Below are positions 22,613-64,000 of a DNA stretch of 64,000 nt, in pieces. The notes beneath the pieces are model-generated. The model was not told the origin of the DNA and did no database searches. It saw only the letters and a program-made list of their open reading frames with translations. Positions within the stretch are counted from its first letter, which is position 1, and every line of letters starts with the position of its first letter. The translations under genes were made by a program, and so were the position numbers. The DNA comes from Cyanophora paradoxa CCMP329 (taxonomy: Eukaryota > Plantae > Glaucophyta), in assembly GCA_004431415.1 (NCBI GenBank), contig QPMI01000545.1, positions 186,001 to 250,000 on the forward strand, written 5' to 3'.

Positions 22613-23156
22613 ATGCAAGATCAAGACCGCGAGGTCCGCCTTCAGCTTGCGCGCGGCCCTGCAGCTGTAAACTCAGAGATTCGATTTCGCGAACAGAATT
22701 TCGCCCTCGGAGACGCTGAAATTGAGCATGACAGCAAAAAGCGCAAATTGGAGCAGGCGTGCATGGGGCTTTCTTTCGTATAAATCCGGAGCCATAACAT
22801 GCCCGCGCGATTTAATATGCATACGCAGGGAGACGTCGACGCGCTCACGCACCGCCCCGATTTCCAAGAACTGTACGAGGTGCGCATGCTCCGCGTCTTG
22901 ACGCAGGTCGCTCCTCAATCTCTGTAGGCGCGATTGCGTTCCAACTTTGCAATTGATCATGAGTGCGCAGGAATTTTACCATCTGCGAGGTGAAGTCAGG
23001 GCTTTGCAGGAGCGGCTTGCAGAGGACGAGGCGCGGCTGTCGGATGACGAGCAGCGGATCGCCTTGGGCGAGCAGCGGCTTGCGCAGGCCGCGGCCATGG
23101 GTGCGCAAGAACGTGTCCGATCGCGATCGCGAGGCAGGGATCAAATCCATTTTTGA
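22613..23156 (+). CDS. Small hypothetical coiled-coil protein (probably spliced)
   Basis: Intron-like segments flank short exons. The last exon is heptad-like (LRGEVRALQERLAEDEARLSDDEQRIALGEQRL). No family recognised. Confidence 0.3.
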
Positions 23157-23255
23157 AATTTGGCCGCAGATCTAGAGCAGCCGCAGCAGCCGCAGCGAAG
23201 CAGCGCCGGCGTGGCAGGCAACGCGGCCCGCCTGGGTGCGCATGCATTTGCGTGA

Positions 23256-23687
23256 AACTTTAAAATAGTGTCCGACTCGGCGAGAAATTTATTGCATGCG
23301 TTTTTCCGTGGCCCAGTGGGCTATTGGGAAGTCCCGCGCGAGATAAAGCCCAGCAACGTGACCCCAGAGCTGGTGCGAAAGTCTTGACAATCCCGTGTGA
23401 CGATCGAGGTCGATCATAAAGGCACGCGCCCCGGGCCCGCGCGCTCGCAGCTGGAGGCGTACCGCGACAACCGCGCGGTGTGCTTCGTGGTGGAAGGGCG
23501 GAACACCTACCATTTCGCCTGCTGTCCCGCCATGTACGAGGGGGGCGCGGAGCACACCAACTACAGCCGCGTGAACCCCAGACTCAAGGGCTACGTTTTC
23601 CGCAACGAGGCGCAGATGCGCGCGTGGGCCAAGGCACAAGTGATGGACAAGTGCCGCGTGTACACCTTCCGCTGCACCAAATACTAG
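23256..23687 (+). pseudogene. Intronless ORF remnant with an internal TGA; possible small His/Cys metal-binding domain
   Basis: The frame continues upstream of ORF 23397-23687 through a single TGA at 23385 (YWEVPREIKPSNVTPELVRKS*QSRVTIEV). It contains TYHFACCP...YVFRNEAQMRAW...C. Confidence 0.3.
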
Positions 23688-23964
23688 CACGTATACTGAT
23701 ATCGCGCGAGCTAGCCGCCGATCATGAGCTGCTGGGCAATGCATGCGCATATGTCGAATTGGTAATTGCTGAATATAATGCCGACCCATCAATGCTTTCT
23801 TAAGCTTCCTAGCTCTTCAAGTTCAATAAGAATTTATATGATGCGCTCGCCAAGCATGCGCAGGGCCGAACGCCCGCAGCAGCCCGTAAGCTTCTACCCA
23901 AACCCGTTCGCGCTGTCCATAATTACGATCACGGGCCTTGCATATGGCCACCAAGGGCTCGAGC

Positions 23965-39869: not shown

Positions 39870-42090
39870 CTCGAATCCGGCCGTGGGGACGGTGCGGTCC
39901 GCACTACGGTACCCTACGAACGGGCCCCCCTCCGGGGCCCGCCGGGCCGGGCCCCATGGGCCATGGACCATGACTCATGAGGGTTTGCGTCGCTCGACGG
40001 GAACGCGTCGACGTTGCCGTCGACTCCGACAAGTCGCCGTCGATCGCAACTCGCGAGTTGCCCTCGACGCTGTCAACCGATTAAAGCGGACTCGAGCGGC
40101 CAGCCTCGAGCTCAGGCTGCGCGCGGGGTCTACCCGGCTAGCCGATAGGAGGTGACTAGCACAAAATACTATGATACAGAATCAAGAGGGATCATGAGAA
40201 GGGACACGATCAGAAGAATGCAAAAGATAAGGAGAACGAGCACGAGGAGAAGGAGTAGAAGAGCTTAATTGCAAGGACGGTCGTAATTTCCCTCGTAAAT
40301 CGATATATGGAGTCACATTGGACCGGAGTAGACTCACTTGAAAAGGCTCACATTATATTGGACCGGAGTGTTATCCGATGATCGACGCGTATACGAGTAC
40401 GGTACGACCGTGACCGTCGCGATCGGACGTACGCGCCGCGGACCGCGGTCCGCGGTACGTATACGTATACGTACGTACGCCGCGCGCCGATCGCGAACGC
40501 CCGGCGCCGGCGGCCGCGGATCCGGACCGCGGTACGCGTACGCGTCGACTCGTTAAACGTTCGATATCGATCGATATATCGCGTTCGAATTCGCGTAAAT
40601 ACTAATATACTATGATAAAAATTCAAAAACATTCACGTCCAGGAAGACGTCGCGATCGACGTCGACGTCGACCCCTTTCGAATTCATGTACCAGTAGACT
40701 GGCAGTAATAGCCTAGTAGGTCCAGTACGTTACTGTACGTATACCCGCTAAACTACCCGCCGCAGCCTCCAATTCACGCACGCGAGTCGACGTCGGCGCC
40801 GGCGGCTCGGCCTCACCGCCGACTCGCGATCGGCGGCGAGTCGGCGCCGACTCGGCGAGTCGGCGGCTCGCCGAGTCGGCCTCACGATTCACGATTCACG
40901 AACTTTCGGAATCACGATTCATGACTCCGGAATTCGGATCCGGCCCATCATGATCATCCGGGCCGAATGGCCCGAATCATCCCGGAGACTGGGCCGGAGT
41001 CCGACCGACTACTAGTACTACGGTACTAGTACTCCGACGTCGACCGACCATCCAATGCATCCATGATGATGAATAGCTATAGCTTGACATGATCCCCTTA
41101 AGCTTAAAATTCTTATCAGTGTAGGCTGTGTTAGCCTGTGTAGCGGCACTGCTGCGGCAGTGCTGCGGGCCTGCGGCACTGTACGGTCTGTACCGTGTTA
41201 CCGCCGGGCCGGTTGCAATTGGTCCGTGTAACGTAACATGTACACATAAATACTGGACTCACTTAATTAACAGAGTCCCAAATTAACAGACCGAAATTTT
41301 GACATAGTCTGTTAATTTGGCACTCTGCTAATTTGCTGCTGTTCAGTACGTATACGTACTAGTCGTCTCATACAATCTACCCCCCAACATTAGCGCACCA
41401 TACAAGCCAAAATTAAATTGTTTAGTCTGCTAATTTAATTGGGACTCTGTTATTTCGCCTATAATTATAAGGGATCCGGATCGGAGGGCCAGATTTTAAA
41501 ACCTGTTATAATTAATTAACGGGCTGTTAATTTAGTGTAACACGGACGTTACACGGTAGTCTGTCACAGTGTAGCGGCAGTGTACCGGTAGGCTGTGTAT
41601 AGCCTGCGCAAGCTGGTCGGGTCGATCGCAAATTCGAATTCGCAATGGCGCACTCATCAGTAAATTGCGTTTAGGATGCTCCATGCTCGATTGACGCCGG
41701 CATGGCCATGGCATGGCCATTCGAATTCGTTCGAAGCTCGGCGCGCATGGATCGATATCGGAATGCCATCATGGATATCGGATATTCCGTCGCCAATGAC
41801 TCGCCAAGAGTCGCCATCCGACTCGATGATCCGAGTCGACGACGACTCGACGTCGACGTCCATGCGTGGAATATTTAATCCGGCGACCGACCGGCGTATA
41901 CGAACGTATGCGCGTGAATCCGCGCGCGCATGCACATATATGGCCAATTCCAGGCCAAAGCGTTGGCCGCGCGCGCCGGCCCGCGCGCCCGGCCCGCCGC
42001 GCGGCCGATTCCCGGAGTCCGATGTCGATGGTAGTCGATCGCGATCATCATGATCATCGACGCGATGAGATAGCTATAGCGCTATAGCTG
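39870..42090. repeat. Second palindrome-saturated non-coding block
   Basis: For example ccgcggaccgcggtccgcggtacgtatacgtatacgtacgtac (40435-40478), gagtcggcg/cgccgactc arrays (40785-40880) and actactagtactacggtactagtact (~41008-41033). Confidence 0.65.
41251..41546. mobile_element. Decayed MITE-like element with imperfect terminal and subterminal inverted repeats
   Basis: Left cacttaattaacag versus right ctgttaatttagtg (13/14 complementary). Internal 28-bp inverted pair at 41264-41291 / 41307-41334, and a third related copy at ~41425-41455. AT-rich and non-coding. Confidence 0.5.
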
Positions 42091-42335
42091 CCAGCGGAAC
42101 GCTTTTGGAAGTGCAGGCTCCGCATCTGCAGCTACACGTATTCGGCGTTCCGCCGGCGCCTCATCTCCTTCTCGCGCCAGCTGGCAGCAGGGAGCAGCGC
42201 TGCATTTCCCGCCGAAGATCGCAGGAATCACTCTCTCTGCGCTTTCCCCAGCCCGGCCGTCTTACTTCAGCCGCCACCGCCGTCGTTTCCTTGCGATCAC
42301 CCACGGCCGCGCCGTTGATCGGCGCCGGGAGAACC

Positions 42336-47274: not shown

Positions 47275-50200
47275 ATGAGCCCGGCGGGAGTCGTTGGACC
47301 CGGAAGTTGGCCTGAACCGACCAGGGGGGGTACCCTCGTCCCGCGCGCAAGTTCGTTGGGAGACGCTGCGGCCAGCAGCTGGCCTTTCGGGCAACCAGCA
47401 GCGATGCAGTCGGGCAACTTCATCCTCCCGACAGCAATCGCAGTGCTCCACACCTCGCGGCAGAATGCTGATCTCACATCGGTTATGCCGCGCATGCACA
47501 CCCAGGAGGGATGCATGGGCGTTCGTTACCACGAGCCTTCCGACAACTGGATGATGTTCTTCAAGACGCAGGCCCAGCGCGATGCTTTCGTTGCTAGTTC
47601 GCCCTTCCCAGCCACGTTGTGGCGCAGCGGAACGAAGACCAGCGTACCGCTTCAGATTTCCGCATACGATAGCCCCGATGCGAACAGCTTACTCATCGCC
47701 TGGATGAAGACGGTCCGGCGCGATAACAAGACACCCGACCAAGCCGCTGCGGCCTCGGGTCGCTCTGCTGTGGCGGATGACGATGACAACATTCCTCTCC
47801 CCACCCAGACTCCTGCCCCTACGCCCCCGGTGCCGTCCCGCCACGAGTCGCCCTTGTTTTGGAGGCGCTCAGCTAACATCTGTTGCCTGCGCTTTCGCTC
47901 CGTTTTTATGAACAGCCTCCAGCCTTCCTCGCTGCAGCCGCGGCGCAGCATGTTCGTTCGCCCCGGCCTCCGAGCCCTCATCGCTTAACGGCCCGCCCGC
48001 GCAGTCTTCAACCCCTCAGCCCGGCTTCCAGAGCTCTCAACGTGAGCGGTTTTGTAATCTCTTCGTGCATATTGGGAAGCGCTAAGGAAAAGTCGCTACG
48101 CAGCCCTCGAGGACTCCCAAGTCAGTGCCCGCGGCGGTCCCCCGCTGGACAGCTCCCAGATCAGACAGCAGCAGCAGCTTCAGGCATGCTCTTCTATTCT
48201 GCTTTTCCATTTCGCACCTTTCCTAACCGCGGTTTCGAATCGGCAGGCCGAGATGCGCAGGAAGCTGGCGCGCCACCTGATGGAGCTCGAGAACGAAGTC
48301 CAGACGCACATCTCGCGAACTTCGGGGCGGGGTTTGGATGGCAAGCCGGCGGCGAACGCGCTGGTGTTCTGCTGCTTCCCGAACCCCGCGCACCCGGAGC
48401 TCGGGCGCCAGCCGAAGCCCCGGAACTGGGACTGCATCACGTCGGACCTCACTCCCCGCATCGACGGCGTCGACAGGCCGCCCACGGTCAAGCACATGCA
48501 GCAGCTCCGCGGCGACATCTCGCTCGTGATGGAAGTGCGCTCGGGGCTCTTTGGCGGTTCTTTCTTCCGCTCTTTCGCGCCTCACGCGCAGCGCGCTGCA
48601 GGTGCTCCAGCGTAAGGAGCAGGACGAGGAGAACAACGCGGTCGACAAGCAGAGCACCGAGGGCCGCATTGGCACGCTTGTACAGGTCCGTGCGCCCGCG
48701 CCCCGGCTCCCTGCCAGCCGGGCGAGCGTCCTCCGCAGAGGATAAAGACGGAGAGCGAAGAGACGGCGCTCAAGCAGTCGATCGACGACCTGCACAGGAT
48801 CGCCGCCCACTCCGGTGACGCCCCCGCCGCGCCGCGCGGCCCCGCGCGCCTCGACCCGGCTGACCTCGGCGTGCAGAGCGGAACAAGGTCATGATTCGCG
48901 ACGCGGGAGCCATCCCGCCGCTCGTCGGCCACCTGCAGGTGCCCTCCCCGTCCATCCTTGGCCGCCCGGCCGCCCGCCGAGCCGCCCCGCCAGAGCCGGA
49001 GCGAGACCGTCAAGCGGAGCACGGTATCGCTCCTCGCGCGGCTCGCCAACATCGGTGCGCGGGGCCGCCGCCCGCCCCGCCCGGCCGCCGCTGACCGCCT
49101 CTGCCCCTCCAGAGCGCTGCAAGACGGCGATCCGCGACGCGGGTGCCATCCAGCCCCTCGTCGAGCTGCTCGGCTCGCGCGTCGAGGTCCGGCCCGCCCG
49201 GCGTCCCGCCCCCCGCCGCGGCTCTCCCGGCGCCGGACCCACGCCGGCCCGCGCAGGTGCTGCAGGAGAAGTCCGCGTCGATCCTGGCCAAGCTCGCCGT
49301 CAACGACGTCGACAAGAAGCTCATCCGCGACGCCAAGGCGAGTTTGCGCGCCGCCCGCCCCCCGCCCCGCACGCCCGCCCCCGCCCGCCCTCCTGAGGCG
49401 GCCGGGCGGCGCAGGGCATCCCGCCCCTCGTGCGGCTGCTCTCCTCCCAGAACGAGGCGGTCCAGACGAGCGCCGTCGCCGTCCTCGGCAACCTCGCCGT
49501 CAACGGTGCGCGCCGCGCCTGCGCACGCGCGCGGCGGGGCCGGCGCCGGGGCCGACGCTGGGCGCGGCGGGCGCGGGGCAGAGCGGAACCAGGAGGACAT
49601 CCGGGAGTCCGGGGCGATCAACCCGCTGGTTGCCCTCCTCGGCTCCCGCAACGAGATCCTGCAGGAGAAGTCCGCCGGGGCCCTCTGCAACCTCGCCTAT
49701 AACGGTGACCGCCCTGCCGACCCCGCGCCGGCCGCGCGCCGGCCGCGCTGACGCCGCCGGCTCGCAGACAAGAACCAGGAGGTGATCCGGGAGGCGGGGG
49801 CGATCCCGCAGCTGGTGCGCCTGCTGGCCGCCCGCAACGAGCTGGTGCAGGAGAACGCCGCCCGTGCCGTCTGGTACCTCGCCGCCAACGGTGCCCCGCC
49901 CCGCCCCGCCCCGCCCGCCCGGTGGCCGACTCGGCCGGGGCCAGTGCGCAACGAGGAGTACATTCGGGACGCGGGCGGTATCCCGCCGCTCGTGAAGCTG
50001 CTCGCCTCGGGCAACGAGTCGATCCAGCTCAACGCCGCCGGCGCCATCGCCTACCTCGCGCCCAACGGCACGCCCCCGCCCGTCGCCCGGCCGGGCCCTC
50101 AGCAGCCCCTGTGACGCTTGGTCGGGGCGCAGAGCGCAACCAAGACACGGTGGCGGAGGCGGGCGGCATCCCGCCCCTCATCGCCCTCCTCAAGAGCCGC

Positions 50201-51031
50201 AACGAGAAGCTGCAGGAGAAGGCCGCCAGTGCCTTCCGGTACCTCGGCCGCTCCGGTGCGCCCGGCCCCGCGCCGCTCGGGCTCTGCAGGCCGCCGCCGA
50301 CGGCCCGCCCCGCCCCGCGCCGCGCCGCGCCGCGCAGACCGGAACAAGGAGCTGATCGTGTCGGCGGGCGGCATCCCGCCCCTCGTCGCCCTCCTGAACT
50401 CGCCCAACAAGAACGTCCAGGAGAGCGCGGGCGGCGCCCTCGGCAACCTCGCCGTCTCCGGTGCGCCCGGCCGCGCCCCGAAAGCCCTCCCGCCGGCCGG
50501 GCGCCGACGCGCCGCCACGCAGACAAGAACCAGGAGATCATCCGGGAGGCGGGCGGGATCCCTCCGCTGGTGGCGCTGCTGCCGACGTGCACGGAGCCCG
50601 GGCGCGTCGGGCCCCTGGTCGCCCTCTGCAACCTCTCGGTCAACGACCGCAACAAGGAGCTCATCGTGCAGGCCGGCGGCATCCGGCCCCTCGTCGCCCT
50701 CCTCGCCTGCCGGGACGAGACCGTCCAGGGCTGCGCCGCCGGCGCCCTCCAGAACCTCGCCGTCTCCGACCGCAACAAGGACCTGATCCGCGACGCCGGG
50801 GGCATCGGGCACCTCGTGCAGCTCCTCCAGTCCCGCAACGAGACGATGCAGATGCACGCCGCCGGGGCGCTCCGGTATCTCTGCGCCACCGCCGAGGGCC
50901 GGAGGGTCCTCAAGCAGAGCAACGGGATCCCCGTGCTGGAGCAGCTCCGCCAGTCCCGCAACAGCTACGTCTCCAAGTGCTCCGTCCTCATCCTCAACTC
51001 CTTCGGCAAGAGCTACCGCCCCGCGCGGTGA
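47275..51031 (+). CDS. Armadillo-repeat protein (Vac8-like repeats, about 11) with an uncharacterised N-terminal region, multi-exon
   Basis: Repeated 41-aa unit (D/E)RN(K/Q)xxIRxAGGIPPLVxLLxSxNExxQExAAGALxNLA. Linking the 47275 ORF to the ARM exons is inferred from splice signals. Confidence 0.88.
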
Positions 51032-51250
51032 TCGGCGCCGCCCCGCCGCCGAGGGGCGGCCGGGCGCGTGCGCGGCCGAGCCACGGCCCGCCCCGCCCCG
51101 CCCGACGCACATGCACACGCACATGCTGGCGAGTTGCCGCCCCCGCACCGCAACGCGGGCGCGCGCGCTCCCCGATACCCCCATTACTAGATTCCACACC
51201 AGTCGTCCAACCTATTAAACGTCGTGCTCACGTAGTAGTTTTGTCTTATT

Positions 51251-52554
51251 TCAATGAAGCGTCAGTCGGATGCGGCGCGGGGCGCGGGCGGGGGCGCCCC
51301 CGACCTCGAGGCGGCCGCCCGGGGCGAGGCGGGACACGAAGGCGCGGGCGGCGCGGGCGCCGCCGTCGCCCAGGGCGAGGTGCCCGAGGGCGAAGGAGGG
51401 CGTCGAGTGGGCCCAGAGCAGCTCGACGCCCTCGCCCGGCGCTGCGACGAGGGCGAGGAGGCCGGCGTGGGGCCCCGCCGCCAGCCAGGCCGCACCCGCG
51501 GGCCCTGCCCGGCCGCCGCCGCGTCGACGTCAGCGGGCGGCGCGGATCGGAGCCCACTGGGCCGGCGCCGCACCTGAGAGGACCGACTCTTCGAATAGGG
51601 CGCGGGCCGCCTCGTCGGGGCGGCCCCGGGCTCCGCCAGGCGCCGCGCGAGCGAGCGGCAGAAGTCGGCGCGCACGAGCGCCTCCCCCGCGCCGCTGCTG
51701 CTGCACGCGACGCCCGGCCGCGAGGCCGCCGCGGCCTGCGCCCAGCAGCCCGCCCCGAAGACCGCCGCCTGCGCGGCCCGCTCGCTCGCTCGCTCGGGCC
51801 CGGCCGCCGGCGCGGATCGGCGAGGGCGGACCTGGCCGACGCGGCCGCTGGTCTTGAAGAGGAGACCGCCGCTGGAGACCGCGGCTGCGCAGGCCCCGCC
51901 CCTCGCCCACGCCACCGCCCCGACCTTCGCGCCGGGGCCCCGTCGACCTTCGCGCCGGGGCCCCGTCGTCCGGCCTGCGCTCCGAGGGTCGGCCGATTGC
52001 GTGCGGGCCGCCGCAAGAGAGGGAGGCGAACCGGGGAGGAGGCCACGGGCGCCTTCCTCGAGGATCGCCGCCGCCAGCCTTACGGGGTTGCGGACGCCAG
52101 ACACGGCCCCGCAGGCGCCGAAGGCTTCTCCCTCACTCCGCATGATCGAGGCATCAAGCTCCACGGAACCGGTGGCTGTGAGGTTCGCGCCAACGCCCGC
52201 GTTGGTGAGCTCGTTGTCCTACGAGGGTCCGCGCGTTCGCTTGCGCATCATCGCTAGCTATAGTAGCATAGCTGCACGCGCGCGCGCACCTCCAGGCACT
52301 GCACCGCGGCCGCCACGCACTCGGTCACGCTCTGGCGACCGCGTTAGCTGCGCGGCATGCGCAGCTGCATTGCGCGCCGCGACGGATCGCTCGCGCGAAC
52401 CCGGCCGGCCTAGGCCTACGCGCACCTCGCTTCTCGCGTAGGCGTCGGCAGCTGCTTCGAGAGCGCGCTTGCAGGCCCGCACGTAAGCCAGCTCCTTGGA
52501 GCGGGCGTGCTGGCCTGCCCCGGCGTGTACGGCGACGACCAGGGCGGGCTCCAT
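51251..52554 (-). CDS. Taspase-1-like (type 2 asparaginase, Ntn hydrolase); internally deleted and lacking the catalytic Thr as assembled
   Basis: VAVHAGAG, LTNAGVGANLT, VELDASIM, GAVSGVRNPV, VGAV, AAVSSGGLLFKTSGRVGQAAVFGAGCWA, SSSGAGEAL, ELLWAHSTPSF. The expected DTVGAV reads AKVGAV. Confidence 0.8.
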
Positions 52555-52752: not shown

Positions 52753-54899
52753 ATGGCGCTGGCGGTAGATATCGGAGGCAGCCTAGCAAAGCTCGTGTAC
52801 TTCGAGCCCCGCGCCAGCGGCTCTTCGAACGACAAGCTCGATCTTGAGGTACGCAACGGCGACTGGGCAGCGCTCGTCGGCGGGGAGAAAAGCAAAGACG
52901 TCAAGCCCGGTGCGCTTAACTTCCACGTCCTGAGATGCGCCCCCGCCCGCTGACGGGCCTCTGTACGAACCGACAGCGAGCTCGGGCTCCCGGGGCCCTC
53001 AGACGGCGGGCAAGCGGAGCGTCAGCACGGATTACGGGCGCCTTCATTTCCTGAAGTTTGAGACACGAAACATCGTTGAATGCATCAAATGGGTCGGTGC
53101 GTACTCCGGCGCGCGCCCGCTCGCGATATCCGCTAGGGACGAGCGCCGCGCGGGGAGCGCGCCGCCGCGCGGCCCGCCGCCTCTTTCTCCGCGCGCCCCG
53201 CGCCTCTTATCGGTGCCCTGTCCGCACACGGCGGCGGCCGGACCGCAGACAAGACGCTGACGGAGCTAGAAGAGAACATGCAGACCAAGCCGGCGCAACG
53301 CGTGGTTTACGCGACTGGCGGCGGCGCTTTCAAGTATGCAAAACTCTTCCAAGAGCTCGCGAACATATCGCTAAAGAAGGTGGACGAGATGGAGGTGCGG
53401 CGCGCGCGCGCGCGCGTCTCGCGTGCTTGCGGCGTCCAGGAACCCGCCGTCTGACGCGGCACCGCGCGCAGAGCATCATCACCGGTCTCAACTACCTCTT
53501 GAAGCACGTGGAGGACGAGTCCTTCGTCTTCATGTCTGCGCTGAATAAAAAGAACCCCAAGATCTACGCCTCCCTCTCCGTGCGCGCAGGCCTCCCCGTC
53601 GCTCGCCCGAGCCGCGTCGCTGATTTCTCTCGCAGGAAAACCCTTTTCCCTACCTCATCGCCCACATCGGCAGCGGCGTCTCCATAATACGAGTGCCTTT
53701 CCCCCTCTTTTCTTTCTTTTCTTCTTCCTCTGCTCACGCCCCCGCAGGTCGACAGCGAGCACCAGTTCGAGCGCGTCAGCGGCACGAGCATAGGCGGCGG
53801 TGCGAAGAAGCTTTGCGCCAGCGCGCGGCGCCCTCGCCCGGGGCGCGCCTCACTTCGCCTCCCGCCGGCGCAGGCACCTTCCTGGGGCTCTGTCAGCTCC
53901 TCACCAACTGCCAGAACTTCGACGACCTCCTCAAGCTCTCCGCGAAGGGTGCGCGCGCGACCCCGCCCCGCCCCGCCTCCCGCGCCCCGCCGCGCCCCGC
54001 CCGAGGCGCAGCCGGCAGGGGACAACACGCGGGTGGACATGCTGGTGGGGGACATCTACGGGACGGACTACTCGCGGGTCGGGCTGCGGGCGGACACCAT
54101 CGCGTCCAGCTTCGGGAAGGTCCTCATGCGGCCCGGGCACCAGGGTCTCCCCGGCCTCTTCGGGCGCACCCTCCGCCGCACCGTCGGCCTCTGGATCGAC
54201 TTCCTCCGCCAGGCCCGCACCCCGCCCCCGCCCCCGCCCTCGCTCGCGAGCGAGCGAGCCGGCGGGCGCAGGTCCCGTTCGTGAGGCGGTTCGTGCCGGG
54301 CGTGCCGGGGGCCTCGTGCGGCTGCTGCAACGCGTGCGACCACTTCCGGAGCGAGGACATCGCCATGGGCCTCCTCCGCATGGTCTCCAACAACATAGCG
54401 CAGGTGCCCGGGCCCGCGCGCCCCGCCCCGCCCCGCGCCTTCCTTCCGCCTCCGCTCAGATCAGATCGGACCAGATCGCGTACCTGAACGCGCTGCGGTT
54501 CGGCCTGAACCGCATCTACTTCGGGGGCCACTTCATAAGGGACCACCGGTACACGATGGACACCATCTCGTACGGCGTCAACTTCTGGAGCAAGGGCGAG
54601 GTCAGGGCCCTCTTTGCTCTTGGCTTACTGCAGCTTTATCCCCCCTTAGCTTATCGAAGCTTTACTGGAGCTTATTTCTCTTGGCTCACTGAAGCTTTAT
54701 CCCCCCTTAGCTTATCAAAGCTTTACTGGAGCTTATTTCTCTTGGCTTATTGAAGCTTTGGTCTTACTGTCCGGCCCAGGTCAAGGCGCTCTTCCTGCAG
54801 CACGACGGGTACCTCGGCGCCCTCGGCGCCTTCCTCCACTCGGGCGACGCCGGCCTCCGCGCCTCGGACGCCACGCGGTGCGCGCCCCGACTGGGGTAA
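52753..54899 (+). CDS. PANK: Type II (eukaryotic, fumble-like) pantothenate kinase, multi-exon
   Basis: [117 protein letters not shown]. Confidence 0.95.
54617..54759 (+). repeat. Intronic tandem repeat, 61-bp period, about 2.3 copies, AGCT-rich
   Basis: ctcttggc recurs at 54617, 54678 and 54739 with near-identical sequence in between; lies in the last PanK intron. Confidence 0.9.
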
Positions 54900-55092
54900 T
54901 CTGTGAACCAAATATCATATATATGTGGGCCTTTGTGAAGCGTTGAGCTCTCGAGCTTGCCCCTTCGCTGTCAATGTATTGTTAACCCTCGGAGGTTGAT
55001 GAGTCACGCGTTGCGGAGGTTGCATTGTTATATTGCATTCGGGGAGGCACGGGGACTAACACGTCCGACGTACCCCTCGGGGCCTCCGGCCT

Positions 55093-56571
55093 CTAACTAT
55101 GCTCAGACTCTAACTGAATGCTGTACCCCCTCACTGGCCGAAGTGAGACGGTCCCCACTCGAGGTCGGGGTGGGCCATGGGGCCTCCGGCGGGGTACGAT
55201 GCTCCCGCTTGCCAGCTCCATGTACTCCCCCACGGGGTTGTCTTCGTTTGCGAGGTCCCTGTAGTTGCCCTTTACGAGATCCGCCGCCGCTTTGCGCCAG
55301 CGAACGGCCACGTTGTACGTGTTGTCGATGATGTTCTGCACTGTACCTCCATGGGTATTAGGGACGGCCTATAGTCGACCTGTCTCTCACGCAGGTTCAA
55401 TTCCCTTTGGTAGTAATCCACTGCGTCTGGGAGGGCCCTGAGCTCCAACGGGTGCTGGCCGGGTCCGACGAGCTAATGAGCCCGGAGCGTTGCAGCGCGT
55501 TCACAGCCGCCCGCAGCATGATTTTGCCTACCCCCCGCATCGCGTTATTCTGCTCGGGCGTCCCGTACCCCCCTGCGGCCCGTAATCGTTGTAGTAGCTC
55601 TCTATTTCGACTGTGGCCGGGCTAGTACCAACCCGAGGCTGCACAAAGCCGTACAGCCATGCCATAGCGTCGTTGTCCGCGGAGCGGCCGCTCTCGGAGA
55701 GGAAGAGAACACTTCGATTTTGAAGTCCCTCGTCCGCCGGTTGACTCGCGTCATTAGGTTGAGGGGGTAGCGCGCATTGCCGAATTTATCAGGAAAGAGG
55801 CGGTGTAGCTTGAACCATGCTTCCTGATCGCCGTACGACATTCGCTCGCGGCTCGCTGAGAATTTCTACCTGTACCCCTACTCGCGGTCGGGTACTTGTA
55901 GCCGGGCATCAGCCTCGCGCGCTTGCGCATCTCCGCCTCCTCGGGTAGCCAGTTCTTCGGGTCGTTGCTCCACTCCTCCCATTCGCGTATGTCTCGCCCG
56001 ACGTCACGTGGGGCGGGGCGTTTATCGGTGGGGCGGGCGGGGCTGGCAGGGCCTGGCGCCGGGGTTGAGGCCCCTGTTCCACGAGTACTCGGGGTACTCT
56101 TCCCAGCCCAGGGGTACCAGATTTGCCGGAATCGGCTCAACTTCGAATTGGGGCTTTTTGGTGTGATACTCATAGTTCGTGACGTACGCCGTCACAGCCG
56201 AGCGCAAGCGCGAGAGGTCGCGCAAATTTACGTCGTCCCATTCCGAGTCCCTTGCCTTCGCGTACCGCTCGAGGATTTGCATGCGAATGTGGTCCGGGAG
56301 GGTCGAGAGTATGCTGAGCTTGGAGCCCAGGGCGAACCAGATGCGCTTGAACTCGTCGATAATCCTGCCCTCGTCGTGGCTCCGGACGTATGAGGCCCCG
56401 CCATAGTTGTAATGGCTGTCCAGCCACCCTGCCCGGCCAGCTCCAGCACCGGCCAGGTTGGCGCTGTCGATTCGGTCGCGAGGCCTGCTCTACCACCCAG
56501 CGTCTAAGGTCCTTGACCTGATCTATGAACTGTGCGATCACGTCCTTGGGCGCTTCCTCTGCATCCGACAT
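55093..56571 (-). CDS. Intronless protein with a C-terminal GNAT-like acetyltransferase domain; interrupted by several 1-nt slips
   Basis: Joining frames gives MSDAEEAPKDVIAQFIDQVKDLRRW...TVEIESYYN...NNAMRGVGKIMLRAAVNALQRSG...LELRALPDAVDYYQRELNL...MEGTVQNII. This matches GNAT motif A (RGxG) and motif B (A..YY). 3' end uncertain. Confidence 0.6.
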
Positions 56572-56621
56572 TTGCAATTGCACACATCAAGAAATTCTAA
56601 ACGCTACTGCGAGACCAAGTC

Positions 56622-57286
56622 ATGCATACCGATACAGATTGCGAGACTTGCGAGAACTTGCAACAGGGGAGCGCGGCGTGGCACGCGGCGCGCCGCGAAA
56701 AGCTAACTGCCTCGAACTTTGCGGCTGCGTGCGGCATAAATCCCTGGAAATCCAGGGCCCGCCTCTGGGCGGAGCTAAGCGGCATAGCGGAGGAAAACAA
56801 CTTCGACAACCCTGCGCTAACCTACGGCATGACTATGAGCCCCTCGCGGTCTCTCTCTACAAAACGTCGAACAACAACGTGGACGTGCAACATACTGGAT
56901 TGCACGAACATAAGGAACTGCCCTTCCTGGCGGGCAGCCCGGACGGGCTGATTGGAAGCGATCGTATACTTGAAATAAAATGCCCCTACAAACAAGAACT
57001 CTACGAAAAGGTCCCAACTTATTACATGCCCCAGCTCCAGGGCCTGCTGGACATAACGGGCCGCGAGTGGGCCGAACTTTTTTGCTTCACTCCTCTGCGC
57101 GTGCAAACGTGGTACGTCAGACGGGACGAGAGGTACATCAAGCTCATGAGGAAGTGCTTACATCTATTTTGGATGCACGTCAAGGAGGGCACGCCGCCCG
57201 AGCCCTACAGCGATCGAATGAAGTCAGAGAACCTCAGCGAGGAGCAGGCGGCGCTGCGCGAGTTTAAGTCGTACGCCCTCCTCTAG
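56622..57286 (+). CDS. YqaJ-like viral recombinase / lambda-exonuclease family PD-(D/E)XK nuclease (1-nt frameshift at ~56826)
   Basis: QGSAAWHAARREKLTAS, YGHDYEP, TGL, FLAGSPDGLI, LEIKCPY, YYMPQLQGLL. The second copy has an extra G that restores the frame. Confidence 0.92.
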
Positions 57287-57335
57287 TGTCCGGACCTTTC
57301 CAATACTCTATATGATTATTGGAGGGTCCGGACAC
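57286..57335. terminator. Stem-loop immediately after the YqaJ stop codon
   Basis: gtgtccggacctttccaata ... tattggagggtccggacac forms a stem of ~18-19 bp with an AT-rich loop, between convergent genes. Function inferred. Confidence 0.5.
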
Positions 57336-57439
57336 GTCTCTTGGTCAGACTACTTCTGTCCCAGGTCTTTGGAATCTTAATATAAATTTTCCCGGGACCC
57401 GGGACAGGCTTGGTCGGACTCACCGTAGCTTGGTGTAGC

Positions 57440-60400
57440 TCAGGCCCAGGCCGGGTAGGCGAGTCTGTAATGAATCAGACCGCGCAGGATTTGGTTGAGC
57501 TGCTCGGTGCAGGGGGCGGGAAGGCGAGGCCGCGGAGGCCATAGAGACGTAGCGGAAGGGGTGGGGAGGCGGCCCCTGTTATCCCACATGGCGTCCACTA
57601 TGGCGTTGTGGACCACTTGCTCTGGGAGGGCGGGACGGGCCTGCGCGCACCGTTTCAGGCCCTCAGCAGCCCTCGAAGATGTTGGAGTTGGCGTGCACCA
57701 GCGGGAGGGAGGGCTGGACGGCGGCGGCGAGCCCGGGCCGAGCCCTGGGTGGCGAGGGCCTGCGAGGGCGCCGGCTCCAGCTCCATCTCGAACATACCGC
57801 CCTCGACGTCGACGGTCACGGGCGGCGAGGCCGGGATCGCGCCGGCCTGCTGCGTGGCGGGGACCTGAGCCGAGAAGTTCTCGAGCCGCCACTCGCGGCA
57901 GCCCTGGCACTCACCTGGACGAAGACGGTGCGGTTGGCGACGGGCGGCGTCGGCAGGGCCTGCGCGGGGCGTCACTCACAGAAGCCGAAGGCGCCGGCCT
58001 TGTGGGGCGGGGCGTCGGGGTCGCGGGCGTGCTATAGGCCTCCGAGCCCTCCGATTCAGAGTCACTCACCGGGCTGAGAGGGTGGGGTGAGAAGAGGCCG
58101 AGGCGGGCCTTCTTGGCGGGCAGGAGGTGGGAGCCGTTGAGGGCGCAATCGGCGCCGTGGGCGCACCTCTCTCCGTAGGTGGGCAGAGGGCCGGGGGCGA
58201 GGGCGCCGGAGCCAAGGGCGCCGGAGCCGAGGACGCCGGGGCTGGAGGAGCGGTGAGAGGGGCCGAGGAGGAGAGGAAGGGGAAGGCGCGGGCACCGGCG
58301 CCGGGACGAGGCCCTCCTCCAGCAGCCGCATCTGCGCCTCCTTCGCCTTCTCGTCGATGCGGGCCTCGAACGTCGCCCAGTTGAAGCCGACGGCGTCCGC
58401 CTCCGCCAGCTCGGGGAGGCCGTGCTCGTCGAACGCCAGCGCGGGCCGCCCGCTGAAGCCGAACGGGGCGGGGGCGAGAGCGCGTTGTCCCCGACGCCCC
58501 AGACGGCGCTGAACGCCGCATCGTCCCAGCGCGCCTCCGCCTCCGCCTGGCCCTCGTCCCTTGCCTCGTCCACCTCCTTGGCGGAGAGCGACCCGATCTT
58601 GATGATGGAGGCCTGGATCAGCACAAACTCGCGCTGGAAGAATTGGACGAGCGGGATGGTAACTGCGGGAGAGGGGTGAGCGGGAGAGCGCGGGGCGCAG
58701 GCCAAGGGCGGGGCGCAGGCCAAGGGCGGGGCGGACGCACATTCGATGCCGTAGGCCACCTCCTTGATGTAGCGGCCCCGGCGGCCGATCTCCTTGGCCA
58801 GCATGCTGCACTCCTTGCGCGCCGGGTGGCCGTGGCCCCACTCCATGGCGATCATCGCCTTCGCCAGACGGACGCCCTCGATGTGCCACTCGTCCATCAG
58901 CGCCTCCAGCTTGGCGCAGATGCGCATCCAGAAGAAGACGCGCTTGAGCTTGTCGCGGTCGAATTCGGCGTCGCCGCTCTTGCTGCCCCAGTCGCGCAGG
59001 TCCGTCTCCTCCGCCTTCTTCACCTTCTCGTACCAGCACTTGATCTTCTCCGCCTGGCGCTGGAACTCGTCCGCCCGCGCCGTGAGAACGTCCGACTCCT
59101 CCTGCGCTCCGAGGGCCCGGGGTCAGGGAGGAGAGGCGGGCTAAGCGGGGCGGCGGCGGACCGTGTGCGAGAGCTCGCCGACGATCACGGAGATGGCCGC
59201 CGAGAGGATCTCACGGGCGCGGGCCGGCCCGTTTGGGTGGCCCTCGCGCAGAACCTCCTCCAGCTTCAGCACGGCCGTCCGCGCGAGATCGCGGTGGCGC
59301 TGGCGGGTCTCGTCGCTCCGGCCCTGATCCACGAGAAGCTGGAGCTGGGGCCGCATGCCGGAGTCGCAGACGCTGGCGTACTTCAGAAGGGCCGCGCAGG
59401 AGAGCACCTTCTGCACGCTGACCAGCCAGTACGCGTAGCCCAGCGGGCTCTCCGCGCTCGGGTTCTCCCCGACCTGCGGACGCGACCTTAGCGCGCGCAG
59501 GGGCAGGGGAAAGGGGAAAGGGCGGGCTCTCGCGCACGTAAATGTCATCGGCGCAGGAGAGGAACATGTGATCAACGACGTCGAAGAAGCCGCCGGACGG
59601 GAGCGTGCCGACGCCGTGGTACGCGCCTTGGATGGTCTCGCCGGCGCAGATGCCGGCCTGGACGGTGACGGTGTACTGCGAGGCCGGCGGCCCCTCCTTC
59701 ACGTAGACGAAGTTGAGGTCGTACTTCTTGGCGTACGTCGGGTTGATGCGCTTGGTGACGATGACGTAATCGCACCGAACGCCGAGGCCGACGGGCTGGC
59801 CTTCTCCTTCTCCGTCACCGACGCCAGGCACTGATCCCGCGCGATCAAGAGCTGCAGCGGCCCGCGCGTGAGCAAGCGCGGGCACGCGAGCGCAGGGAAG
59901 GGCCCTCACCCCGTGGGCGCCGCCGCTGCCGGATTTGAGGTCCGCGAGGAACTCCTTCTGCTCCGGAGTGCCGGAGAAGATCGCGCGCGGATGGAAATCG
60001 CGATGGAGCGCGATGCTGTTGAAGCAGCCCGCCGCCGCATTGTCGGACATCAGCAACAGCGCCACATCGCCGTGCGTGAAGCCGTACTTCGCCTTCACAT
60101 GCTCCGGCAGCTCGTGAATGCTGTAAGGCACGATCTGCGCGCGGGGCACGCGAGCCGGGGCATGTGAGCCGGGCCGAAGCGGTGCGGGCGAAACCGCGAA
60201 CCTCGTTGAACTTATTCACCGGCGTGAACTGGCCCTTGGTCTTCAAGCGCTTCGGGTGGCCGTCCGTGTTCTGGATCTTCTTCAGCCCGCCGAACGGCTC
60301 GAAGCGCGGCACGCCGGCCGAGTTGAACACGCTATCGCAGGTCATCGCGTTGAGCGCCTCCTCCGCCGACAGGCTGCCGAGATCGCGGGCTATGCTGTCC

Positions 60401-60453
60401 TGCTCGCCGGGCTGCTGCTGCTTCGCGCACGAGCGGAAGGTCGCCGCCTGCAT
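57440..60453 (-). CDS. Large orphan protein (island gene B), spliced
   Basis: Protein-like exons joined by GT-AG introns (...TPVNKFNE|IVPYSIHE...; ...SCADDIY|VGENPSAE...; KLKRVFFWMRICAKLE). Cys/His motifs near the C-terminus (RCAHGADC, GECQGC). No family recognised; several homopolymer slips. Confidence 0.65.
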
Positions 60454-60758
60454 CGCGAGTGTTACTGCCCGCGATGTCTCAACGGATTCCGTTCAACGTC
60501 GTACCCCCGCTGGCTTGTTCCCTCCCCAACTCGCGAAGACTCAGACTTGAAGCCCGCTTCCCCCCCCCTCAAAATGCGTACCCCCCTTGGGCTCGAACCC
60601 CGGTCGGTTTCTCGCTTTTTTTTGACTGCCCAGTCCGGCGATGCAATGCAGGCCGCTCGTTCAAATCGGCTGGGAACTTGGCGCCAGAACCTTCGCAGCG
60701 CGCGCAGCACTCCCAGCAGAGCGCGCGCAGCACCGGCGGCAGCATCGGCGGCAGCAGC

Positions 60759-63613
60759 ATGTCTCGGCTCGCGCTCCCTCCGGAGATCCCGGCTAAGCTG
60801 GCGAAGAACACGCTGTACGACGTTCTCTGCGTCGGCGACAGCTTCGGCGTCGATTGGACGGTTTTCGAGGCCGGCATCAGCGACCAGGCGAAGGAGGCGC
60901 AGGCGCGTGCGCTGGAGGATGGCATGCAGTTCAGCCCGAGCAGCAAGGATGTGCTGCGCAAGACCGAGCTGGCCGAGCGCAAGCGCAAGCTCGCCGCGGC
61001 GCGGACTTTGAACGCCGAGGGTGCCCCCGGCCCGTCGGTGCAGTTCTCCATCGACTCCGTCCTGTCGCGGCTGCGGCTCGCGGAGGTGCTCGCTGCCTCT
61101 TTCTCCCTCACGCGCCCGGCTCGCAGCGGCTGAGGCGCCGCCGCGCTCGCAGGACGCGGACGTGCGGGCGATGCACGCGGCGCTGAACATGACGGAGGAG
61201 AACTTCGACACGCCGAGCAAGCCGAAGCCCGGGCGCGATTCCGACGCCCGCCGGCTGTTCGCGGCGCAGCGCCTGCGGCTGCTCATGGGCGCCGTGCCCC
61301 GGCACATCGCCAAGGGCGAGTGGCGCACGATTGGCCTGCTGGCGGGCCCGGAGGAGTTCTACTTCAACCGCATGGCGGAGGCGGCCCCGCACCTGCTCTG
61401 GCTGCTGGTGCTCAGCTCGGACCCGGCCTACACGCCCGAGGTGCGCCCCCGGCCGCCCGTGCAGCCGCGGCCGCCCTCCCCGCCGACCCCCGCCGGCCCG
61501 CAGAGGCTGGCGAAGGGCATCATGGGCGTCGAGGCGCGCTGCATCATGCGGAACAGCCGCGCGTTCATCACGCGCCACGAGAGCTCGGCGGTCTGGGGCG
61601 AGCGGCCGGACACCGGCGTCCTCACCGACGCCTACGCCATCCGCATCGTGCTGGAGGCGGCCTGCCGGACGTGCCGGGACCGCCACGGGCGCCAGGGCAT
61701 CTGCGCCTTCGACCTGGTTCCTGAGTTCGAGGTGCCCGGCGTCACCATCGGCGACCGCGTGCAGGTGCGCCGTTTCTATTTGGATGCTATTTAGATGCTA
61801 TTTAGACTATTTAGATGCCATTTAAACCCCCTCGCAGGTCATCCGCCGGTGCTCGATGCCGGACTCGCACGGGCGGCCCATGATCCACGGCGCCGTGAAG
61901 TACGTGGTGCCGCGGCGCACCCTCGCCCTCACCTTCTTCGTCCCCGTCTTCGACAAGGCGGCCGCCGCCGCCGCCGCCGCCGCCTCCCGCCCCGCCCCAT
62001 GCTCGCGGCCGCGGAGTCCTCGGATTCCGACTCGGATTCCGAGGCGGAGCGCGAGGCCGAGGCCGCCGCCGCGGCCCGGGCGCTGGACTTCACGGAGGAG
62101 GAGCTGGAGCGGGCGCGGAGCCTGCCGCGCGCCGGCCAGGCGATGGCCGCGGCCTTCCAGGCGGCGATCGGCGAGGCGACGGCCTCCGCCTCGGGCGCCC
62201 GGGCCGGCGGCAGCATGATCACGGCGGAGGGCCTCGCGCGCGCCATGCGCGTGGCCCAGGCCCAGGCCCAGGCGAAGGGCAAGGGCAAGGGCAAGGCCGC
62301 CTACATCGACCTGCGGTTCGAGGAGGAGGAGGCGGGTGCCCCGGCGGCGCGGCGCGATCTCGGCGAGGAGATGGAGGCGGCGGCCCCCAAGGCGGCCGGT
62401 GCGCCCTCCCCGCCCCTAATTTCTGAGCCTAGGGCGTTCCAGAGGCGCAAAGGAATGACCCTGCCCACAGAGGAGGAGCTGGAGGCCGAGCGCGAGATGG
62501 AGATGGAGGCCGCGCTGGCGGCGGCGGCGGACGCGAAGGCCTCGCGCGAGCTGGAGGTGGCGGAGGAGTACGCGATGGAGCTGGAGCGCGAGCGCGAGCG
62601 CGAGGGCGAGCCCGATGCGGAGCTGGCGGCGACGGTGGAGGCGGGGGCGGGGGACACCTTCGAGCCCGAGCCCCCGTCGACGAGTTCTACCCCCTCCCGC
62701 CCTCCCCTCCCTCGACGGCGCCCCGCCGCCGCCCATCGAGGAGTTCTCGGACGACGAGCCCGGCGACGCCGGCCCCAGGCCGCCCCTCGTCTCCCCCGCC
62801 GCCCGCCGCCCCCGTGCCCCCCGCCAGCCCCGCCGCCTCCGACGTCTCCTGGCGCCCGAGCGGCAACCCCTCGGCCTTCAGTCCCTTCCGCCCCTCGCAG
62901 CCCTCGCAGCGCCCGCCGCCCTCCGTCCAGGGTACCCCCTCGCCCGCCCCATCCCCTCGCCGCCGCGGGGCACGCCCGTCGCCACGCCCGCCTCCTCCCT
63001 CGGCCACATGCCCCCTCCGCCCCTCCGGCCCCCGCGCCGGCCGCCTCTCCCGCCGGGCCCAGCAGCGGCGCGAGCGCGAGCGGCAGCTGCTGCGCGATCA
63101 GCGGGCGGAGGCGGAGGCGGACCACGACGACGGCCAGGCGTCGGAGGTGCCCCGGCGGCGCGGCGCGATCTCGGCGAGGAGATGGAGGCGGCGGCCCCCA
63201 AGGCGGCCGGTGCGCCCTCCCCGCCCCTAATTTCTGAGCCTAGGGCGTTCCAGAGGCGCAAAGGAATGACCCTGCCCACAGAGGAGGAGCTGGAGGCCGA
63301 GCGCGAGATGGAGATGGAGGCCGCGCTGGCGGCGGCGGCGGACGCGAAGGCCTCGCGCGAGCTGGAGGTGGCGGAGGAGTACGCGATGGAGCTGGAGCGC
63401 GAGCGCGAGCGCGAGGGCGAGCCCGATGCGGAGCTGGCGGCGACGGTGGAGGCGGGGGCGGGGGACACCTTCGAGCCCGAGCCCCCCGTCGACGAGTTCT
63501 ACCCCCTCCCGCCCTCCCCCTCCCTCGACGGCGCCCCGCCGCCGCCCATCGAGGAGTTCTCGGACGACGAGCCCGGCGACGCCGGCCCCAGGCCGCCCCT
63601 CAAGAAATTCTAA
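60759..63613 (+). CDS. Orphan protein (island gene C), spliced, with a Cys/His cluster and a duplicated acidic C-terminal region
   Basis: Exons MSRLALPPEIPAKLAKNTLYDVLC...RLAE|DADVRAM...YTPE|RLAKG...CRTCRDRHGRQGICAFD...DRVQ|VIRRCSMPDSHG..., then an acidic tail. The last frame stops at TAA 63611-63613. Confidence 0.6.
62335..63601 (+). repeat. ~455-bp direct repeat (62335-62788 and 63146-63601)
   Basis: The copies differ only in C-run lengths as far as can be read by eye. Both encode RRDLGEEMEAAAPK...EEFSDDEPGDAGPRPPL. Confidence 0.92.
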
Positions 63614-64000
63614 ACGCTACTGCGAGACCAAGTCATGCATACCGATACAGATTGCGAGACTTGCGAGAACTTGCAACAGGGGAGCGCGGCGTGGCACGCG
63701 GCGCGCCGCGAAAAGCTAACTGCCTCGAACTTTGCGGCTGCGTGCGGCATAAATCCCTGGAAATCCAGGGCCCGCCTCTGGGCGGAGCTAAGCGGCATAG
63801 CGGAGGAAAACAACTTCGACAACCCTGCGCTAACCTACGGGCATGACTATGAGCCCCTCGCGGTCTCTCTCTACAAAACGTCGAACAACAACGTGGACGT
63901 GCAACATACTGGATTGCACGAACATAAGGAACTGCCCTTCCTGGCGGGCAGCCCGGACGGGCTGATTGGAAGCGATCGTATACTTGAAATAAAATGCCCC
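63600..64000 (+). repeat. Direct repeat of 56587-56986 (at least 400 bp, runs off the window)
   Basis: Both copies start tcaagaaattctaaacgctactgcgag. The only difference seen is tacggcat versus tacgggcat. Confidence 0.95.
63635..64000 (+). CDS. Second YqaJ-like exonuclease copy, in frame, truncated by the window edge
   Basis: ATG at 63635; reads ...NPALTYGHDYEPLAV...AGSPDGLIGSDRILEIKCP without a frameshift. Confidence 0.9.
   Translation, partial: MHTDTDCETCENLQQGSAAWHAARREKLTASNFAAACGINPWKSRARLWAELSGIAEENNFDNPALTYGHDYEPLAVSLYKTSNNNVDVQHTGLHEHKELPFLAGSPDGLIGSDRILEIKCP

Follow-up and report, generated by a model that had tools for sequence, protein, structure and literature searches.

Positions 54,780 to 64,000 of the window, by which we mean the whole 64,000-nucleotide stretch of Cyanophora paradoxa CCMP329 contig QPMI01000545.1 that was analysed, hold an exon of a PanK (Fumble) gene followed by a gene A, a YqaJ/lambda-exonuclease gene, two large genes B and C, and the start of a further tandem unit (Table 1). 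Genes A and YqaJ lie head-to-head; their ATGs at 56571 (minus strand) and 56622 (plus strand), 50 bp apart, were confirmed in the sequence. The divergent orientation of B and C and their splicing, both already read from the sequence, are confirmed, the splicing by GT-AG joints, with introns in C too. Three of the runs (X15, X17 and X19) are RNA by guess and were relied on for GT-AG joints only.

Table 1. Features between the PanK exon and the end of the window.
Feature	Position	Strand	Evidence
Last PanK (Fumble) exon seen	54780..54877	+	Fumble matches upstream; presumed-RNA contig X19
Left end of the element, TATATATGTGGGCC	54918..54931		Depth step and several unrelated flanks
Gene A, ~480 aa, no intron seen, frameshifted in the assembly	55131..56571	-	Open frames
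YqaJ/lambda-exonuclease, copy 1	56622..57286	+	Profile match, catalytic motifs
Gene B 3' UTR, spliced and antisense to the coding sequence of YqaJ	56826..57439	-	Joints, GT-AG
Hairpin, directly 3' of the YqaJ stop	57286..57335		Folding against shuffles
Gene B, orphan, ~780-800 aa, spliced, transcribed	57440..60453	-	Presumed-RNA joints
Gene C, 5' part, coding for an orphan N-terminal domain and a linker of low complexity	60759..63146	+	Gene models, read contigs
Internal duplication of 62335-62788 (99.6%)	63146..63601	+	Junction overlaps of 1 and 2 bases
Next tandem unit: YqaJ copy 2, ATG 63635, open to the window end	63600..64000	+	Self-comparison

YqaJ is a stand-alone gene of 221 codons. Its assignment is borne out by matches to PF09588 (copy 2 at E 1e-24, copy 1 with its C-terminal frame at 9e-13) and to TIGR03033 above cut-off, and the catalytic E, D and E-x-K are present in the motifs YEP, SPDG and EIKCP. 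Near position 56828 copy 1 is one G short of copy 2. Compared with the read contigs, single bases in G/C runs are missing from the window at many places, and most frameshifts in the window look like assembly errors. For gene A, one-base differences in the read contigs open a 219-codon C-terminal frame; in these contigs the region of the gene also differs between subfamilies. The sequence-only reading had proposed a GNAT-like product for gene A. C-terminal motifs recognised by eye speak for this, but the frameshifted pieces (66-91 aa) gave no GNAT match in Pfam, NCBIfam or PHROGs. RNA cover is lacking over most of this gene, from which nothing is concluded.

The hairpin behind YqaJ stood up to folding analysis, with a z of -5.4 and 0 of 200 shuffles folding as well. 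It falls within a 3' UTR intron of gene B (57205-57423), and its stem letters vary in loose contig ends, where pairing was read by eye. Joints in the 3' UTR of gene B were found at 57203-57423 and 57094-57162 in the presumed-RNA runs X15 and X17. At least 8 GT-AG introns lie in the coding region of this gene and 10 in its transcript; 10 of 11 RNA joints fit GT-AG introns, in runs of two studies. Its 13 aligned copies are 92-98% identical. Profile searches assigned gene B to no family, a PDB sequence search returned no significant match, and its AlphaFold model, built from 13 near-identical sequences, has a pLDDT of 30. As a candidate tyrosine recombinase, gene B was examined by eye for an HPAR/GRY stretch; since the spacing does not fit, this reading was dropped. 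For an annealase or recombinase function of B or C, the more general proposal, profile and PDB sequence searches gave no match.

Base composition changes over part of the locus. GC is 0.54-0.60 over 54918-57400 versus 0.75 in host genes at 5-20 kb, and GC3 is 0.68-0.80 for YqaJ and A, 0.90-0.98 for B and C, and 0.98 for PanK. The switch to lower-GC, intronless genes described before holds for about 2.5 kb only; B and C are host-like in GC and GC3. In codon use B and C are host-like and A and YqaJ are not.

Gene C and the genes downstream of it

In the window gene C is cut before its helicase part, and contigs of runs X4 and X15 run past 63146 into other sequence. Full copies encode 1,435-1,519 aa and carry a predicted D5-type SF3 helicase at the C-terminal end, which bears out the suggestion that B or C might be a replication partner. 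Because gene C gave no direct D5 profile match, the assignment runs via two remote matches. When a profile of the C-terminal part was searched against 1.84 billion proteins, 22 were matched; the two weakest matches are limited to the ATPase region (E 1e-5 and 2e-4) and belong to D5/P4 primase-helicases (DUF5906, D5_N, TIGR01613). Gene C aligns to these two D5-type proteins with 96% probability, with Walker A (GQSGTGKS), motif C (LVIVCN) and the arginine finger (FFAR) in register; the alignment is loose over Walker B, a degenerate region. Of 19 gene C models, 14 have an intact Walker A and 5 stop short of it. Direct searches returned a weak AAA_22 match only and none in NCBIfam or the PDB, the N- and C-terminal parts both being without significant match in PDB sequence searches. 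An AlphaFold model of the C-terminal part (2 sequences) has a pLDDT of 31, too low for the empty Foldseek result on it (E<=0.001) to carry any meaning. In the N-terminus, profile and PDB sequence searches found no primase or polymerase domain; this part does not align with that of a 795-aa helicase relative.

In other copies gene C is followed by at least 4 further small genes (D0, D, E and F). D0, D and E hold hydrophobic segments, with Kyte-Doolittle values of 1.7-2.6 for D and E. No profile match to a capsid, packaging ATPase, polB, integrase or transposase was found in genes A-F; these negatives cover the element as far as gene F, and Pfam and PHROGs are weak for capsids of Polinton-like viruses (PLVs). 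IMG/VR held no relative of C, YqaJ, B, D or the 795-aa helicase relative, and metagenome scans found no relative, close relatives alone being detectable in both. A search of Rfam gave no match.

The fresh YqaJ copy noticed at the end of the window is 99.75% identical over 401 bp, but it is not free: with it a 7,013-bp tandem unit begins anew behind the truncated, internally duplicated gene C. The ends of two public gene models on one contig carry the same two junction peptides; among the read contigs listed, none bridges 63146 or 63601. The copy in the window, which lies in tandem inside the PanK intron, is a derivative that has lost the helicase by deletion.

Left end, insertion site and copy number

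Contig X19 (one contig of one run) matches two PanK exons with 0 differences, departs from the window at 54877 before the GT, and past this point stays in frame into sequence that is absent from the window. A GT donor at 54878 follows the exon end in the window sequence and according to this contig; with the left end at 54918, the element lies 40 bp inside a PanK intron. An insertion directly after the PanK stop, as previously assumed, is contradicted by the same single contig, which places the TAA at 54897-54899 within the intron. PanK is hereby implied to splice over more than 9 kb of inserted sequence, nearby introns being mostly shorter than 200 bases.

The left boundary, earlier set at 54950, has to be moved: the sharp end is at 54914-54918, where unrelated flanks meet in 4 of 4 runs (X1, X2, X13 and X19) and the depth rises from 59 to thousands (run X2). 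A motif search found the left-end motif once in the window. Read-contig variants diverge at 54998-55131, which could reflect subfamilies or a second arm; PLVs are expected to have terminal inverted repeats of hundreds of bp. Among the loose ends of read contigs listed, there was no empty-site DNA junction at the left end.

In run X1 the read-contig depth is 91 for PanK versus 3,195-4,330 for the long contigs of B and C (35-47 fold); such a depth is not a copy number, for which the gene models provide an independent floor. The element proteins match EukProt models of Cyanophora paradoxa, which place B on 20, C on 17, D on 38 and E/F on 35 contigs; altogether at least 61 contigs are involved, which shows many dispersed, near-identical copies. 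On all 11 contigs having both, the gene numbers of B and C are consecutive, and the order B-C-D-E/F is held on 34 of 34 contigs with at least two families, local repeats aside. Genes A and YqaJ are multicopy by depth; their adjacency to B was mapped in this window alone.

The high-copy mobile element is real; in the window it is represented by the left end and by a rearranged copy. The multiple copies, the one sharp common end and the replication-type helicase predicted in full copies agree with the self-amplifying, partly intronised, virus-like element that had been suspected from the sequence. Single-copy, syntenic cellular genes would not explain tens of copies, a precise end and unrelated flanks. 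An element built around YqaJ, or YqaJ amplifying alone, is not supported.

Nature and origin of the element

With a probability of roughly 0.45, we read the locus as the left end of an element A-YqaJ-B-C-D0-D-E-F that is a capsid-less, host-adapted offshoot of the PLV/giant-virus mobilome, copying to TA-rich sites. In such an element host polymerase II would make the B and C mRNAs, and the gene C product would act as a hexamer in unwinding the element, primed either by the host or by the orphan N-terminal domain of this product. YqaJ might resect 5' ends, upon which free copies would anneal, circularise or form concatemers, before a copy enters a TATATA-like site. Insertion would most likely be carried out by a tyrosine recombinase or other integrase encoded right of F, or else by B or the N-terminus of C. 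Counting against the capsid-less reading, the hydrophobic segments of D0, D and E fit a virion better than a transposon.

This last point would suit the left arm of a complete PLV or NCLDV-like dwarf virus, the main rival explanation, which we hold to be somewhat unlikely and in which capsid, packaging ATPase and tyrosine recombinase lie right of F and the replication-side genes have gained introns. PLVs are present in Cyanophora (PMC12220804, whose Table S6 gives 85 of 156 glaucophyte elements with PF00589 and 0 with rve), SF3 helicase fusions are reported as a standard PLV replicase (PMC12220804; 10.64898/2026.06.19.733378), and YqaJ is labelled in PLV/dwarf-virus genome maps (10.1101/2022.07.28.501842). 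D0-E are small as well as hydrophobic, and the hairpin of YqaJ recalls the hairpin polyadenylation signal reported for Mimiviridae (PMC4402537). However, the coding region of B is interrupted by introns and its GC3 is at host level, endogenous PLVs being described as intron-free (PMC10120064); furthermore, 0 hallmark genes were found in the ~8 genes seen, and there is no relative in IMG/VR, where close relatives alone are detectable.

It is rather doubtful that the element represents a new class, which would replicate by a D5-type SF3 helicase plus YqaJ and insert at TATATA without capsid, DDE enzyme, tyrosine recombinase or HUH Rep, the inserter being B or the N-terminal domain of C. If full copies turn out to carry no integrase of a known kind, the candidate for a new mobility enzyme is gene B or the N-terminal part of C.

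Spliced, host-like genes are normal in eukaryotic transposons, and the sharp end lies in a TA-rich motif. A large cut-and-paste transposon, with viral genes captured as cargo and a DDE transposase in the right part or represented by a diverged B, is still unlikely. In ISL2EU and KolobokE YqaJ is described as an accessory gene or domain, but SF3 helicases are not named in the descriptions at hand of either family, a DDE match is absent from every gene seen (A-F), and the present element is larger, has more genes than ISL2EU and starts with TATATATG and not with GG.

D5 helicases and YqaJ are common in giant viruses. An endogenised giant-virus fragment without mobility of its own, spread passively by segmental or tandem duplication, would fit giant-virus insertions reported in C. 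paradoxa (PMC12344493) as well as the tandem, rearranged window copy with its overlaps of 1-2 bases. We nevertheless consider it very unlikely in view of the unrelated flanks that meet a single end, precise to the base, in 4 of 4 runs, the fixed gene order across at least 61 contigs, and a gene B that is spliced and transcribed, whereas the reported insertions are described as methylated and mostly silent (PMC12344493). An assembly artefact from collapsed repeats is least probable of all. Bases in G/C runs are missing from the window, positions 63146 and 63601 are unbridged by the read contigs listed, and an artefact may well explain the tandem unit. It would leave the element itself unexplained: in X2 a contig of 4,215 bases at single depth reaches from PanK 30 bases into the element, one of X1 does likewise, and spliced transcripts exist.

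Under the preferred reading of a host-adapted offshoot, the element has the look of a virus-type replicon on its way to becoming a nuclear transposon: the viral helicase and exonuclease would have been retained, and the large genes are intronised and codon-adapted while the small ones are not. The polinton-virophage-transpoviron network leads one to expect intermediates of this kind, which would escape screens based on intron-blind gene callers and capsid baits. Tens of young copies are present in the host, an alga that is kept in culture.

Comparison with known systems

YqaJ shares 35-39% identity with phage exonucleases, many of which adjoin RecT/Bet genes as in phage Red/RecET systems; unlike these, the element showed no annealase homology in B, C or D-F. 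Tandem copies and the lack of a visible DDE enzyme recall Helitrons and Replitrons; in profile searches B and C gave no HUH Rep match. Helitrons use a superfamily 1B helicase, and Replitrons were not detected in glaucophytes according to the account at hand.

ISL2EU and KolobokE likewise combine a eukaryotic mobile element with a YqaJ/lambda-exonuclease. Both are defined by a DDE transposase, which was not found in the genes seen here. According to the available description ISL2EU elements average ~4.8 kb, have two ORFs (a DDE/THAP transposase and YqaJ), usually start with GG and generate an AT duplication; the present element exceeds 9 kb, counts at least 8 genes and has an end that begins with TATATATG. 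In KolobokE the lambda-exonuclease domain follows the DDD/E transposase domain, whereas YqaJ here stands alone.

The giant endogenous viral elements (GEVEs) of C. paradoxa also bring viral-type genes into the nuclear genome of this species, but they are described as methylated viral-gene clusters; the present element is a compact repeat whose end is precise and whose transcripts are spliced. PLVs and virophages share with the element a D5-type SF3 helicase, predicted in our case, at the C-terminal end of a large protein, many small orphan genes and multicopy integration in protists. They possess a primase/TVpol-SF3 helicase and a tyrosine recombinase of their own; among the genes seen here (A-F) no capsid, A32 ATPase, polB or integrase was found, and B and C differ by their spliceosomal introns and host-level GC3. 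Transpovirons and Tlr1 of Tetrahymena resemble the element as helicase-bearing members of the virophage-polinton network with 6-8 or more genes. Their helicase belongs to superfamily 1, in contrast to the predicted D5-type SF3 helicase of gene C, and transpovirons are linear plasmids tied to mimiviruses, whereas the element described here occurs as spliced chromosomal repeats.

Copies, left end and host gene

Copies of the element were assessed from read contigs and gene-model names. In sequencing run X1 the read-contig depth, which does not equal copy number, was 91 on the contig of the host gene PanK (Fumble) and 3,195–4,330 on long contigs of genes B and C, a 35–47 fold excess; the values of run X4 (3.5 vs 125–198) start from a single-copy depth too low for trust. 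Models of the element's genes are spread over at least 61 contigs altogether: at least 21 for B on 20 contigs, 19 for C on 17, 38 for D on 38 and 38 for E/F on 35, all of them floor values from length-limited searches in which 4 of 18 C, 10 of 14 B and 10 of 38 downstream matches were expanded, cluster members were assigned by membership and multi-accession entries were counted once. All matches to C (18/18) and B (14/14) are EukProt models, and Cyanophora paradoxa accessions occurred in every cluster looked up (4/4 for C, 10/10 for B). B and C are consecutive on all 11 contigs carrying both, and the order B-C-D-E/F is kept, local repeats aside, on 34/34 contigs with at least two families. The assembly is reported to comprise 712 contigs with 11.5% unknown repeats (PMC6704402, in excerpt). 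The element is present in high copy, in line with the self-amplifying element inferred in the sequence-only reading, and it is a real, young, multi-gene mobile element.

Unrelated flanks meet the repeat at 54918 in four contigs each of X1 and X2 and two each of X13 and X19; further joins lie at 54916 (two contigs, X2) and 54914 (one contig, X13). Single-depth PanK contigs (X1, X2) reach 54943, 30 bases inside the repeat, and beyond the PanK contig end the depth in X2 rises from 59 to thousands. The left end is precise. Its shared sequence is TATATATGTGGGCC, the TA run of which is either target or terminus, one end having been read. Subfamilies, or a second arm of the terminus, could account for variants that diverge from the window at 54998–55131 and in gene A.

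The element had been placed directly after the PanK stop. An RNA-type contig of X19, without differences to two PanK exons, exits at 54877 before a GT and runs on, in frame, into sequence that the window lacks. On this one contig, from a sample that could be without the insertion, the TAA at 54897 falls in an intron and the element sits inside a PanK intron. At 54614–54759 a PanK intron holds an AT-rich tandem repeat (61 bp, 2.3 copies) among GC-rich introns, perhaps a small mobile insert or one that generates introns. Host genes left of PanK (49400–52220) include one with armadillo repeats and an Asparaginase_2 (taspase-like) gene.

Genes of the element

Features of the element, with positions in the window
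Feature	Position	Strand	Description
Gene A	ATG 56571	minus	start 50 bp from YqaJ ATG
YqaJ	ATG 56622	plus	PF09588, TIGR03033 and PDB matches
Hairpin	57286–57335		3' of YqaJ stop, folding z -5.4
Gene B	ATG 60453	minus	GC-rich, spliced
Gene C	ATG 60759	plus	GC-rich, spliced
D0	downstream of C		short hydrophobic peptide
D	downstream of C		~160 aa, hydrophobic C-terminal segment
E	downstream of C		~100 aa, hydrophobic C-terminal segment
F	downstream of C		~130 aa, basic

From 54918 to ~57400 the GC content drops to 0.54–0.60. The head-to-head starts of A and YqaJ, the identity of YqaJ, the hairpin and the divergent, spliced pair B and C were all borne out. YqaJ matches PF09588 with E 1e-24, its catalytic motifs are in place, and its PDB matches are phage exonucleases and mimivirus R354. 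In loose ends at the hairpin the stem letters differ, with pairing still possible by eye; a hairpin polyadenylation signal is reported for Mimiviridae (PMC4402537). At the terminus of gene A, extra bases of the read contigs open a 219-codon frame with GNAT-like motifs, also by eye.

Gene B has 11 splice joints in runs of two studies. Ten are GT-AG introns, two of them in the 3' UTR antisense over YqaJ, where the hairpin is spliced out; a diverged copy of gene C is likewise spliced. GC3 is 0.90–0.98 in B and C, 0.98 in PanK, 0.68–0.72 in YqaJ and 0.80 in A. By splicing and GC3 the element holds two kinds of gene, B/C and YqaJ/A. The excess of 6-bp palindromes typical of the host (41 vs 30 per kb in shuffles) was not found in the element, with 19–22 per kb, at or below shuffles. 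A gene C intron (61765–61837) carries 4.6 copies of an 11-bp CTATTTAGATG repeat.

Contigs of X4 and X15 run on beyond 63146 with different sequence, and in other copies gene C has 1,435–1,519 aa. GQSGTGKS is present in the C-terminal part of 14 of 19 models, the remaining five stopping short of the motif. Pfam gave AAA_22 alone for this part, weakly. A two-sequence profile of it gave 22 matches among 1.84 billion proteins. By score, twenty are close copies or fragments, and five of the 16 new ones among them, looked at individually, are pieces of gene C; the other two, of 795 aa (E 1e-5) and 540 aa (E 2e-4), are D5/P4 primase-helicases. In both alignments to gene C (96% probability) the arginine finger, Walker A and motif C are in register and Walker B is loosely aligned. 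Judged by these motifs, gene C in its full copies is a predicted helicase gene. Of the roles proposed for B or C (annealase, recombinase or replication partner), the replication partner is supported by the D5/P4-type helicase part of C; the N-terminal domain of C is an orphan for which no relative was found.

The helicase part differs by 30% between two subfamilies (P0008 vs P0012/P0015, gene C proteins) while the N-terminus differs little, and gene B is 92–98% alike among aligned copies, which suggests module exchange between subfamilies. Two C fragments (P0134, P0137) have a common unrelated N-terminal stretch, as if a single nested insertion in C was copied.

A fused model extends beyond C, and its tail, used as a query, gave 38 proteins, which comprise D0, D, E and F. 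These had no Pfam match below E 0.04, and the genes read in this way extend as far as F. D has 61% identity with an unnamed protein in ENA, so relatives exist outside the reference models.

The copy in the window

Self-BLAST identified 63146–63601 as a near-perfect copy of 62335–62788 and 63600–64000 as one of 56587–56986, with overlaps of 1 and 2 bases at the junctions. The "fresh YqaJ copy" first noticed here is a repeat, not a free copy, and the window copy would be a derivative. On one public contig two C models end in the same duplication and terminal LKKF as in the window; next come B, another partial C (the third), D and F. This fits an array in which a 7,013-bp unit without the helicase is repeated in tandem. 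None of the read contigs listed bridges the two junctions, and the array may therefore be real or misassembled. At many places the read contigs show one more G or C within a run (one comparison lists 12 such cases from its 52 indel rows, another 8), so the frameshifts in the window are probably assembly errors.

In two low-GC non-coding islands (1–2050 and 39950–42100) the density of six-base palindromes is 55 and 73 per kb, as compared with ~17 in mononucleotide shuffles, and each island includes a larger inverted repeat (992–1032 and 41265–41333). Low GC and short ORF fragments, the two tested being without Pfam match, also mark 22600–23900, possibly another element remnant.

Mechanism and known systems

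We favor a capsid-less, host-adapted element, with a probability of roughly 0.45; it would work like a replicon of the Polinton-like virus (PLV) type. The host would transcribe B and C, C would unwind the element and YqaJ would resect it; free copies would anneal, circularise or concatemerise. Insertion at TA-rich sites would be carried out by an unseen integrase, by B or by the N-terminus of C.

That the element is a complete PLV is unlikely on balance. Excerpts of the literature report PLVs (PMC12220804) and giant-virus insertions (PMC12344493) in C. paradoxa. Intron-free genes are given as a PLV feature (PMC10120064, in excerpt), at which the spliced B and C fail. A DDE transposon carrying these genes as cargo is rather improbable; the element fails the tests for ISL2EU and KolobokE. 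Passive spread is very unlikely, and an artefact is hardly credible.

The element likewise fails the tests for transpovirons. Among the top matches listed from the openly searchable literature, with subscription papers and Repbase outside, we found no description of an element with spliced YqaJ and SF3 helicase; related work, in excerpt, includes 10.1101/2022.07.28.501842, PMC4482050, PMC9587614, PMC10288648, 10.64898/2026.06.19.733378 and PMC3671162. We consider a new class doubtful, and the element could be among the unnamed glaucophyte PLV entries.
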